Below the pieces are notes generated by a model. It made no database searches. It saw only the letters and a program-made list of their open reading frames with translations, and was not told the DNA's origin. Both the position numbers and the translations under genes were made by a program. From a virus (taxonomy: Duplodnaviria > Heunggongvirae > Uroviricota > Caudoviricetes), in IMG/VR virus record IMGVR_UViG_2623620491_000007: DNA of 4,934 nt. One strand, written 5' to 3'. Shown piece after piece: positions 3,028 to 4,777 of this stretch (the first letter of the stretch is position 1; every line of letters starts with the position of its first letter).

Positions 3028-3246
3028 GTGGTGACTGGTTGTTGTGTTCCATTTCTACAGAACAAAATCACAGAAACTATACCCAATAGTTGTATTGAAT
3101 CACTGACGAGACAGCCTCATATTTATCAGGACTGGTGTGCGTCTAATACAGGAGGTTGTCGTGCTGGTTCTCAAATGTGCGCTGGCTATTGCGGCTGTAA
3201 TGGCAATTTATTGTCTTGCTATTGTTCTTATGGATCGCCTTTTTGA
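3028..3246 (+). CDS. Possible small cysteine-rich protein (about 72 aa, 14 Cys); coding status uncertain
   Basis: ORF-track frame 3022-3246. AAGGAAG at 3015-3021 is too close to GTG 3022, so GTG 3028 or 3031 is the more plausible start. C-terminal CAGYCGCNGNLLSCYCSYGSPF is Cys-dense. No homolog recalled; it fills the gap between the cassette terminator and the hok promoter. Confidence 0.2.
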   Translation: MVTGCCVPFLQNKITETIPNSCIESLTRQPHIYQDWCASNTGGCRAGSQMCAGYCGCNGNLLSCYCSYGSPF

Positions 3247-3257
3247 CTGATTTCATA

Positions 3258-3286
3258 TTGGCGAGGTAACGGGAGTTAAGTAGAAT
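3258..3286 (+). promoter_or_regulatory. Candidate promoter of the mok/hok mRNA (-35 TTGGCG 3258-3263, 17 bp spacer, -10 TAGAAT 3281-3286)
   Basis: Hexamers with canonical spacing; the predicted start near 3293 gives a leader of about 113 nt before mok and a transcript of about 420 nt to the terminator, in line with hok-family mRNAs. The predicted 5' end is complementary to a segment downstream of hok. Confidence 0.35.
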
Positions 3287-3405
3287 GCCTGCGGGTGCTT
3301 GGGGCTATCTGTCTCAGGCATGAACACCAAAAGGCAGATAGAGAAGAGCCCCAGTTAACATTACGCGTCCTGCAAGACGCTTAACATTAATCTGAGGCTC
3401 AATCT

Positions 3406-3618
3406 ATGAACGGCAAATCTAGGTTAGCCTCTTACGTGCCGAAAGGCAAGGAGAAGCAGGCTATGAAGCAGCAAAAGGCGATGTTAATCGCCCTGATCGT
3501 CATCTGTTTAACCGTCATAGTGACGGCGCTGGTAACGAGGAAAGACCTCTGCGAGGTACGAATCCGAACCGGCCAGACGGAGGTCGCTGTCTTCACAGCT
3601 TACGAATCTGAGGAGTAA
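3406..3618 (+). CDS. mok: Mok-like reading frame: in-frame N-terminal extension of hok whose translation enables hok translation (70 aa)
   Basis: ATG 3406 is preceded by GAGG at 3394-3397 (8 nt spacing) and runs in frame through hok to the same stop. This mirrors chromosomal mokC/hokC annotation, where both share a stop, as I recall it. Confidence 0.5.
   Translation: MNGKSRLASYVPKGKEKQAMKQQKAMLIALIVICLTVIVTALVTRKDLCEVRIRTGQTEVAVFTAYESEE
3463..3618 (+). CDS. hok: Hok/Gef-family type I toxin (small membrane-depolarising peptide), 51 aa
   Basis: Translation MKQQKAMLIALIVICLTVIVTALVTRKDLCEVRIRTGQTEVAVFTAYESEE matches the Hok/Gef/RelF family: hydrophobic transmembrane helix followed by the conserved TRKxLCE..R..G..EVAAF/VF..YE block. 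Closest to HokD/RelF and Gef from memory. SD AAGGAG at 3448-3453 lies 9 nt before ATG 3463; stop TAA 3616-3618. Confidence 0.85.
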   Translation: MKQQKAMLIALIVICLTVIVTALVTRKDLCEVRIRTGQTEVAVFTAYESEE

Positions 3619-3676
3619 GAGACCCGGCGGGGGAGAAATCCCTCGCCACCTCTGATGTGTCAGGCATTCTCAACGC

Positions 3677-3710
3677 ACCCGCATTTAACCCGTTTCGGCG
3701 GGTTTTTTGT
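3677..3710 (+). terminator. Rho-independent terminator of the hok transcript
   Basis: GC-rich hairpin (AACCCG 3687-3692, loop TTTCGG, CGGGTT 3699-3704; alternatively ACCCGC 3677-3682 with GCGGGT 3698-3703) running into TTTTTTGTT at 3703-3711. Confidence 0.55.
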
Positions 3711-3893
3711 TGCGCGCTGAATACGCAGGGGGAAAAATAACCATATATTTGATTATATACACAACAAAAAATAAAAGTCATTGTACCTGCACATTAAACA
3801 ATCCAATATACGGCGTGAAATAAATATTTTTCAGATTAATATTTTTGTCTCTATGTGGATATAACCGTTTGTACTTATAAACCTGGAGGCATC

Positions 3894-4106
3894 GTGGAAA
3901 AAATAAAGAAACTATTTAGTAGCAAATACGCAGTCATACGTCGTGATGACCTGTCAGTTATAGTCGAAATGGATTACTTCCCTGAAACCCCAAAATCAAT
4001 GATGTATCGTAATGGTCGAAAGGTAATTTTTTTACCGATGAGGGTAAGTGACATTATGGGAAATGATAAACTGCTGGATGAATTGCGAGTCAGAGCATCC
4101 TGTTAG
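3894..4106 (+). CDS. Hypothetical small phage protein (about 70 aa from GTG 3894)
   Basis: ORF-track frame 3855-4106. The best start is GTG 3894, 4 nt after GGAGG (3885-3889). It is preceded by an AT-rich, promoter-like intergenic region and ends 71 nt before the DUF1367-like gene. No motif recognised. Confidence 0.35.
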   Translation: MEKIKKLFSSKYAVIRRDDLSVIVEMDYFPETPKSMMYRNGRKVIFLPMRVSDIMGNDKLLDELRVRASC

Positions 4107-4177: not shown

Positions 4178-4777
4178 ATGGCGCATATACAACTGGTCAA
4201 ACAAACCTCTTCCGGATTACTTCTCCCGGCGACGCCGGAGAGTTGCGATTTTTTGCATCAAATCAAAATAGGTGAGTGGATACACGCAGACTTTAAGCGT
4301 GTGCGTAACTACGCATTTCACAAGCGTTTTTTTAAACTCCTGCAACTGGGATTCGATTACTGGACTCCGAGCGGTGGGGTGATCACGCCTCGAGAACGAG
4401 AACTGGTATCAGGCTTCGTTGAGTACCTGTGCGAATCAGTAGGTCGGGAACATACGCCAGCTCTGAGCGAAGCCGCAGAGCAATATCTGAATACAGTTGC
4501 AACACGCAGAACCCGGGATACGGCCTTACTCAAGTCATTTGACGCTTTTCGCGAATGGGTAACCATTCAGGCCGGATTTTACACCGAACATTTTTATCCG
4601 GACGGTAGTCGTGGGCGCAGGGCAAAATCTATCGCATTTGCGAACATGGACGAAACCGAGTTTCAGCAGGTTTATAAATCTGTACTGAATGTGCTGTGGA
4701 ACTGGATCCTGTTCCGTAAATTTTCCTCTCCGGAGGAAGTCGAAAATGTGGCCGCACAGTTACTGGAGTTTGCGTAA
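4178..4777 (+). CDS. DUF1367-family lambdoid phage protein (nin-region gene), 199 aa
   Basis: GGAG at 4166-4169 lies 8 nt before ATG 4178. The product (MAHIQLVKQTSSG...FHKRFFKLLQLGFDYW...) matches my recollection of the conserved DUF1367 proteins found upstream of DUF1364/rusA/Q in lambdoid prophages. Stop TAA 4775-4777. Confidence 0.8.
   Translation: MAHIQLVKQTSSGLLLPATPESCDFLHQIKIGEWIHADFKRVRNYAFHKRFFKLLQLGFDYWTPSGGVITPRERELVSGFVEYLCESVGREHTPALSEAAEQYLNTVATRRTRDTALLKSFDAFREWVTIQAGFYTEHFYPDGSRGRRAKSIAFANMDETEFQQVYKSVLNVLWNWILFRKFSSPEEVENVAAQLLEFA

Follow-up and report, generated by a model that had tools for sequence, protein, structure and literature searches.

A Probably Complete hok/mok/sok Module of the HokD/HokW Subfamily in an Escherichia coli Lambdoid Prophage, with Two Rare Substitutions in Its RNA Elements

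The locus at positions 3258-3710 of the phage DNA analyzed here (a stretch of 4,934 nucleotides, referred to as the window) in all likelihood contains the whole of a canonical type I toxin-antitoxin module, hok/mok/sok, which belongs to the prophage subfamily HokD/HokW. The carrier is a Rac/Qin-like lambdoid prophage in E. coli, where the module is a moron with the replication genes on one side and the Q-antiterminator region on the other. The hok/sok family has been known since the 1980s, and the locus is an already known, textbook member of it. The closest phage relative, hokW/mokW/sokW, was characterized experimentally in 2021 (PMC8621323). What is new is limited to two rare substitutions specific to this lineage, A3302G and A3346G, in the RNA elements of the module.

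The entire 4934-nt window was 100% identical to a contig of E. coli assembly GCA_012647285.1 and to one metagenome scaffold, and ten further similar places were found besides these two. From this identity to public E. coli sequences, the window is a natural sequence and one that was already known. The genes around the locus are as follows.

10-228: DUF1627 gene, terminal part
229-660: DUF977/LygF gene
974-1381: 4-fold beta-flower protein, the first gene of a two-gene cargo
1460-2875: 471-amino acid protein without assigned function, the second cargo gene
3855-4106: 83-amino acid open reading frame (phrog_1813) downstream of hok
4178-4777: DUF1367/IrsA gene
Window end: YbcO-like gene, initial part only

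In a prophage sharing the upstream cargo of the window, a TehB-family gene was observed in place of the hok module, and prophages with different cargo, such as an AAA/RloB pair, were observed to have an identical mok. Screening of the neighboring open reading frames with PADLOC gave no defence-system match. A homologue of Rem, as in the Qin prophage of K-12, was considered for the frame at 3855-4106 and was ruled out by the lack of BLASTP similarity. Beyond the window, the 100%-identical contigs run into a DUF1133 Q-like antiterminator and then a holin. Together with the DUF1627, DUF977, DUF1367, and YbcO neighbors, this continuation bears out the original prediction that the locus lies within a prophage, and the window is a section of an E. 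coli lambdoid prophage of the Rac/Qin type.

The reading frames of the module and their ribosome-binding sites are the following.

3463-3618, plus strand: hok toxin gene, 51 amino acids (Pfam PF01848 HOK_GEF)
3406-3618, plus strand: mok frame, 70 codons, in frame with hok, from the ATG at 3406 to the common TAA at 3616-3618
3394-3397, plus strand: mok Shine-Dalgarno sequence (SD) GAGG, 8-nt spacing to the ATG, invariant in 28 homologues
3448-3453, plus strand: hok SD AAGGAG, read from the sequence and conserved

The hok product is a small membrane peptide of the Hok/Gef type, about 50 amino acids long, with the conserved Cys and a transmembrane segment. It matched PF01848 with an E value of 1.2e-23 and a score of 82.9 bits (cut-off, 22), and C15, T17, L29, E31, and E40 were invariant in the alignment of the window Hok with HokA-E, HokW, and R1 Hok. 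The exact protein was found on at least 1000 contigs, labelled HokD, and the locus also matched PHROG 251, "MokW-like host killing." Upstream of hok, the overlapping mok leader frame begins with its own SD; its exact 70-amino acid product was present on 149 public contigs, and mok was in frame with hok in 84 of the 100 scorable IMG/VR relatives among the matches listed. The hok/mok unit was free of frameshifts, IS elements, and truncations. The claims made earlier of a full-length Hok with its conserved motifs, and of a mok with a proper SD and the stop codon of hok, thus hold.

Transcription signals were assigned as follows.

3258-3286, plus strand: hok/mok promoter, -35 TTGGCG at 3258-3263, 17-nt spacer, -10 TAGAAT at 3281-3286 (consensus scan and homologue alignment)
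3293/3294-3710, plus strand: full-length hok mRNA, 417-418 nt, with the 5' end placed by homology and the 3' end at the U run of the terminator
3687-3710, plus strand: intrinsic terminator, stem at 3687-3704 and U run to 3710 (terminator scan)

The assignment of the promoter rests on homology because the scan by itself, which returned 3 sites against 2.7 expected, was without significance. A -10-like hexamer is present at the aligned position in nearly all of the 28 homologues, being TAGAAT in the closest ones, and the -10 of the window is the same as that of hokW in phage 933W. Another 7-8 nt downstream is the base aligned to +1 of the hok mRNA of plasmid R1, the numbering of which (G4, C5, T6) puts +1 at the first G of GGCGCTT (PMC9841398). 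The predicted length is in line with the promoter, terminator, and transcript of about 420 nt that had been proposed. Rfam RF01794 matched 3293-3468 with 104 bits and an E value of 1e-23, and the full mRNA gave a minimum free energy of -168.3 kcal/mol, with z = -6.7 against shuffles. Together with matches to 5141 records, annotated hokD, in 4724 of 5426 complete E. coli genomes, these values excluded a chance origin of the locus.

The regulatory elements within the mRNA were located from predicted folds and from the alignment of 28 distinct homologues (the window included), which were prophage and chromosomal loci of Escherichia species, Shigella, Kluyvera, Pseudocitrobacter, and Kalamiella and one R1-type plasmid locus.

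3293-3304, plus strand: tac (translational activator), carrying A3302G (predicted folds, conservation)
3295-3321, plus strand: metastable 5' hairpin of the nascent transcript (nascent folds)
3346-3352, plus strand: ucb, or anti-SD box, carrying A3346G (predicted folds, conservation)
3394-3431, plus strand: Sok target hairpin of the open truncated mRNA (fold of truncated RNA)
3626-3647, plus strand: GC-rich 3' stem-loop, the expected protective end of the processed mRNA (fold, conservation)
3668-3680, plus strand: fbi (fold-back inhibition) element, carrying C3668T (pairs with tac in the fold)

The predicted partner of tac depends on the state of the RNA: it is 3311-3321 while the RNA is nascent, fbi when it is full length, and ucb when it is truncated. 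The closed form was the minimum free energy structure of the full-length RNA, in which tac (3293-3304) pairs with fbi (3668-3680) in a helix of 12 bp, with a pairing probability of about 1 for the outer 8 bp, and ucb (3346-3352) pairs with the mok-SD region (3394-3400). In RNAs lacking the 3' end, the predicted structure was the open form, composed of the tac/ucb stem and the 3394-3431 hairpin, which would be accessible to Sok; at the foot of this hairpin the mok SD (3394-3398) is paired with dcb (3427-3431), and these five base pairs are essentially invariant in the 28 homologues. Over the same alignment, 87% of the cells in the full-length structure were paired, compared with 38-46% in slid controls, a percentage somewhat inflated by the derivation of the structure from the window sequence; unaffected by this are the 42 pairs changed on both sides, compared with 18-27 in the controls. 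Pairing was maintained in 94.6% of the cells for the 5'-3' fold-back of tac and fbi, 96.4% for the open tac/ucb stem, 97.7% for the metastable hairpin (33-45% in slid controls), and 94.4% for the 3' stem-loop at 3626-3647, where 3 pairs were changed on both sides. Furthermore, tac, ucb, and fbi were the least variable parts of the unit, with an entropy of 0.05-0.14.

The metastable hairpin, the ucb/mok-SD helix, the tac/ucb stem, and the SD/dcb target hairpin are accordingly all found in the predictions. Alignment to characterized loci (R1, HokA-E, and HokW), which had been suggested as a check of the locus, gave counterparts for all of the RNA elements of R1 hok/mok/sok (parB), namely tac, the metastable hairpin, ucb, the mok SD, dcb, the 3' stem-loop, and fbi, so that the modelled RNA anatomy of the window matches the R1 model element by element. 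The R1 model was confirmed by mutational scanning, and the R1 counterpart of the 3' stem-loop is needed for the stability of Tr-hok (PMC9841398).

An active Hok had been said to require an antisense control, and a gene for it was found on the opposite strand with a promoter of its own.

3414->3344, minus strand: Sok antisense RNA gene, 71 nt (positional homology with sokW of 933W and sokC of K-12)
3449->3421, minus strand: Sok promoter, -35 TTGCCT at 3449->3444, 17-nt spacer, -10 TAACCT at 3426->3421 (read from the sequence)

The predicted Sok is thus encoded in cis, overlapping the start of mok. Its start at 3414 is nine bases into mok, and the annotated sokC of K-12 and sokW of 933W likewise start at the mok ATG+8; the 3' end at 3344 was placed by alignment to the 71-nt sokW of 933W. 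The predicted RNA folds into a 14-nt single-stranded 5' tail, one long hairpin, and a U-rich 3' end, with a folding energy of -32.3 kcal/mol and z = -6.2. Positions 3421-3450 of the plus strand have exactly the sequence of YO-597, a sokW probe published by Takada et al, who studied Sp5 (PMC8621323), and they include the hexamer replaced in the mutagenesis primer YO-421, which, as we infer, served to make their promoter-less sokW mutant. The Rfam "sok" family matched the plus strand (the hok leader) and gave no match on the minus strand; its strand could not be used for placing Sok because this model matches the hok-sense strand. Within a unit that is rigid elsewhere, variation was greatest in the target of the Sok 5' tail, a pattern that would fit an insulation among several hok/sok copies in one cell.

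With respect to family membership, 102 phage records matched the locus under the labels hok/mok, MokW, "host killer," or "gef," and it shared 92-97% identity with loci that carry a hokD or mokW annotation in phages and prophages. Homology of DNA over the whole unit, the extended Sok hairpin, and the location in a lambdoid prophage place it in the HokD/HokW subfamily. The hokW/mokW/sokW loci of 933W and Sp5 (VT2-Sakai) are 92.5% identical in nucleotides to the window over 410 nt, and hokW-sokW of Sp5 is a working type I toxin-antitoxin module that assists lysis on induction (PMC8621323). Like the window, the 933W locus has an in-frame mok, a 71-nt Sok, and a Sok hairpin extended by 16 nt beyond the Rfam consensus, and its HokW is 94% identical to the window Hok. 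The two differ in the Hok C-terminus (TAYESEE in the window against VDYESEK), in the Sok 5' tail and its target (AAUCUAUGAACGGC in the window against AAUCCAUGCUGAAC), in A3302G, A3346G, and C3668T, which are present in the window, and in the sequence 3' of fbi. They also differ in position, because the module lies in a nin-like region here and near the right genome end in 933W; the hok/mok/sok module is a mobile cassette that moves among phage backbones and positions.

The more distant relatives share the same plan. In hokC (gef)/mokC/sokC of the E. coli chromosome, Hok is 84% identical to that of the window, mok is in frame, and the DNA identity is about 74% over the whole unit, whereas the locus belongs to the chromosomal core genome, is cut off at its 3' side by IS186 in K-12, and is without the 16-nt Sok hairpin extension. 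In plasmid R1, mok is also in frame with hok and the Sok promoter, TTGCGC-17-TATCCT, has the same geometry as in the window; however, R1 Hok is just 41% identical to the window Hok, and in the plasmid-borne locus the 5' hairpin is longer and the Sok hairpin shorter.

On this basis, the module would be expected to operate as follows. The promoter at 3258-3286 would drive the mRNA of about 418 nt, as its homologues suggest, and the nascent 5' end would fold to the metastable hairpin, for which both the in silico folds and their conservation argue. In the complete mRNA, tac would then pair with fbi and ucb would hide the mok SD, a structure predicted in silico and conserved, so that the mRNA would be untranslatable, refractory to Sok, and stable. 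By analogy with plasmid R1, slow 3' trimming to the 3626-3647 stem-loop would strip fbi, after which tac would pair with ucb and the mok SD/dcb target hairpin would form. As in R1 and hokW, the Sok 5' tail would bind this target and block the translation of mok, and therefore the coupled translation of hok, and the duplex would be cut by RNase III. Once the supply of Sok ends, Hok would be made and the inner membrane depolarized. From the 94%-identical HokW, we infer that Hok would be toxic here and neutralized by Sok; in a preprint on Hok diversity, chromosomal hokA, hokB, and hokC with an intact-looking structure are cited as giving no post-segregational killing.

Prophage induction is the most likely trigger. 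In the Sp5 lysogen, sokW RNA vanished after mitomycin C, HokW appeared RecA-dependently about 1 h before the endolysin, growth arrest preceded that of the deletion mutant by about 40 min, and phage release was approximately two-fold higher with hokW-sokW (PMC8621323). Our best guess, by analogy, is that the lysis-assisting role of hokW-sokW may apply here. Since hok points the same way as the early-right operon, with Sok running toward it, read-through from this operon on induction would, by our own reasoning, interfere with the Sok promoter, although the trigger mechanism may not transfer from 933W because the module sits elsewhere in the 933W genome.

Private or rare bases were found at seven positions in the lineage of the window in comparison with 25-29 distinct relatives.

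3288, between the -10 and the transcript start: rare base
3302, plus strand, in tac: A3302G
3346, plus strand, in ucb and in the 3' tail of Sok: A3346G
3528, in hok: rare base, synonymous
3668, plus strand, in fbi: C3668T
3684: rare base
3693, plus strand, in the terminator stem: C3693T

Each rare base within a helix gives a G.U wobble and never a mismatch. A degenerate-pattern scan found A at both 3302 and 3346 in all of at least 120 IMG/VR loci; A3302G was found in 2 IMG/VR contigs, on another backbone, and A3346G was absent from the IMG/VR contigs searched. No compensatory change was found opposite A3302G, U3670 and U3314 being unaltered in the window as well as in the two contigs that carry A3302G independently. 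Owing to two G.U pairs, the tac/fbi duplex is weakened by 3 kcal/mol, to -18.5 kcal/mol from -21.5 kcal/mol for the consensus, although the helix is still formed, and the terminator is less stable (-9.2 kcal/mol compared with -11.8 kcal/mol for the consensus) because C3693T makes a C-G pair into U.G. A3346G converts the tac/ucb pair U3300-A3346 to U.G and extends the closed ucb/SD helix at its end by a G3346-C3400 pair, which the window alone forms among the 28 homologues (0 of the 27 others). On the Sok strand, it makes the base of the hairpin firmer and shortens the U-tract that follows from UUUU to UU. R1 has neither A nor G but U at this position, so that its tac/ucb stem is one pair shorter. 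The original prediction had seen no obvious lesion, and this stands for IS elements, frameshifts, and truncations, but it is qualified by A3302G and A3346G, which lie in the most conserved RNA elements.

Three other readings of the locus were weighed against that of a complete module assisting lysis. That it could be a decayed relic like hokD (relF) of the Qin cryptic prophage of K-12, an orphan toxin frame without its own antisense control, is suggested by the name hokD given to such genes in RefSeq and by the Hok peptide, which differs from K-12 HokD in one residue (50 of 51 shared, 98%); both genes are in a lambdoid prophage early region, and their DNA identity from the hok SD through the coding region and 3' UTR to fbi and the terminator is 97.7%. 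However, alignment to K-12 hokD refuted this reading, which is accordingly highly improbable, since the homology ends at the relBE fusion immediately upstream of the hok SD, where K-12 lost the promoter, tac, ucb, mok, and sok, whereas the window keeps the entire 5' leader, including the promoter, tac, ucb, mok, and the Sok gene with its promoter. K-12 hokD is the relic, and the window is the undamaged form of that locus. A tentative possibility of more weight is that the module is active but serves mainly to stabilize the prophage, by killing cells from which it has been lost or excised, or in abortive infection against superinfecting lytic phages that shut off host transcription. R1 hok/sok is cited as giving post-segregational killing and lowering T4 plating, hok genes are reported to be four-fold enriched in prophages, and the movement of the cassette across phage backbones and positions would also fit such a role. 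The only direct test of a prophage hok/sok, on the other hand, found that phage release was improved and that the uninduced lysogen showed no growth phenotype (PMC8621323), and hok is described as not enriched near defence systems.

The remaining reading accepts a complete module but takes it to be attenuated, in that A3346G and the weaker tac/ucb stem would bias the processed mRNA to the closed form, with little or no Hok made even without Sok. We consider this unlikely, and equally doubtful is its extension that a locked-closed allele would represent a prophage toxin domesticated by a retuned RNA switch with the gene unbroken, the natural equivalent of the R1 suppressors obtained by FASTBAC-Seq. 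The unpaired probability of the mok SD failed to distinguish the open from the closed form because the SD is paired in both, and the balance was computed instead by constrained ensemble energies. For the truncated RNA, ddG(open-closed) was +2.8 kcal/mol, compared with +0.6 kcal/mol for the functional hokW of 933W, +1.0 kcal/mol for R1, and approximately 0 for the median relative, and it dropped by about 3 kcal/mol at each of four tested 3' ends when G3346 was reverted to A. Attenuation is also favored by the 3346-3400 pair peculiar to the window, by the A at 3346 that is otherwise universal in the HokD/HokW subfamily among the matches listed, and by seven single substitutions in R1 that add pairs to the SD/anti-SD stem and abolish toxicity (PMC9841398). 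Those suppressors, however, are inside the SD and not at the distal end of the helix, the values for the relatives span -4.7 to +7.3 kcal/mol with two exceeding that of the window, a difference of 2-3 kcal/mol is within the error of nearest-neighbor prediction, and A3302G acts slightly in the opposite direction. The allele is unchanged in at least 12 assemblies, a persistence that is neutral evidence. The balance is predicted to be shifted by about 2 kcal/mol toward the closed form relative to 933W, inside the natural range, and A3346G is, at a probability that we set low, a subtle candidate attenuator and not a demonstrable lesion.

Beyond annotation, the importance of the locus as a complete hok/mok/sok module is little. 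For annotation, the label "HokD toxin" alone should give way to one that names the complete hok/mok/sok module of the hokD/hokW type and places Sok on the opposite strand, and the natural G3346 allele is a ready means of testing the closed/open switch model beyond plasmid R1.

The hok/mok/sok module lies between other small or uncharacterised elements of the prophage, the positions of which are as follows.

974-2875, + strand: two-gene cargo, encoding a 4-fold beta-flower protein (family PF21784) followed by a 471-aa protein
2912-2932: terminator, 3' of the two-gene cargo
3161-3250, + strand: 29-codon ORF without annotation, from GTG (3161) to TGA (3250), directly upstream of the hok promoter
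3855-4106, + strand: 83-aa ORF, downstream of hok

The 471-aa cargo protein matched phrog_27609, and searches of Pfam, NCBIfam and PADLOC for it returned no match. The same two genes are carried by E. coli PF9285, in which a TehB-family gene is present in place of the hok module, and they may function as a moron or as a defence pair not yet characterised. The 29-codon ORF is preceded by a strong Shine-Dalgarno sequence, AGGAGG at 3150-3155, and its product is a hydrophobic peptide, VLVLKCALAIAAVMAIYCLAIVLMDRLFD, with a conservation of 86-100% among the 12 fetched loci, one of which is a prophage without hok. No match for this peptide was found in Pfam, PHROG or NCBIfam; possible identities are a small membrane protein and a further small toxin. 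The 83-aa ORF is located where K-12 Qin and several phages have rem. No similarity to K-12 Rem could be detected, and its sole match was phrog_1813, a family of unknown function.

With respect to RNA families, the Rfam model RF01794 ('sok antitoxin') matched 3293-3468 on the + strand, which is the hok-sense strand carrying the mRNA leader and not the strand encoding Sok, the antisense RNA, indicating that pipelines using this model will annotate 'sok' on the wrong strand. There was also a weak, sub-threshold match to isrK, an Hfq-binding sRNA of the Gifsy-1 prophage of Salmonella, at 3627-3708 on the + strand (26.6 bits at E 0.008, the gathering score being 50), which spans the stem-loop of the hok 3' UTR and the terminator and may represent chance or a distant relationship.

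Within the HokD/HokW subfamily, mok was out of frame in a minority of relatives, namely, the locus of E. coli 300709 (6190-6265) and, among the matches listed, 14 IMG/VR loci, so that in-frame and overlapping-stop arrangements coexist in one subfamily. The shift results from the insertion of 1 nt (AGGTCAAGG) together with a shortened N-terminus, and mok then stops after 19 codons at a TGA that overlaps the hok ATG (CTATGA). The seven lineage-specific changes between 3288 and 3693, when read on the coding strand, were all A to G or C to T except that at 3288, where relatives have G or A and the ancestral base is ambiguous; this pattern could reflect transition bias or simply the small sample. 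The Tyr47 codon of hok is part of a UACG motif (3601-3604, + strand) that is conserved throughout the family. The Hok diversity preprint reports that TadA A-to-I editing turns the equivalent Tyr codon to Cys in hokC, hokD and hokE, and the presence of the motif makes a similar editing layer possible in the window's hok.

The greatest variability within the transcribed unit was found at the following element.

3398-3414, + strand: target of the Sok 5' tail

Its entropy was 0.93, whereas that of the switch elements of hok mRNA (tac, ucb and fbi) was 0.05-0.14. At least 12 distinct variants of the target were present in 99 IMG/VR loci among the matches listed, the window's variant being the commonest there (21 of the 99). 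The hok locus is present in a median of 2 and a maximum of 9 copies per E. coli genome. The variability of the tail target, together with the multiple copies, would be consistent with hok/sok pairs in one cell being insulated from each other.
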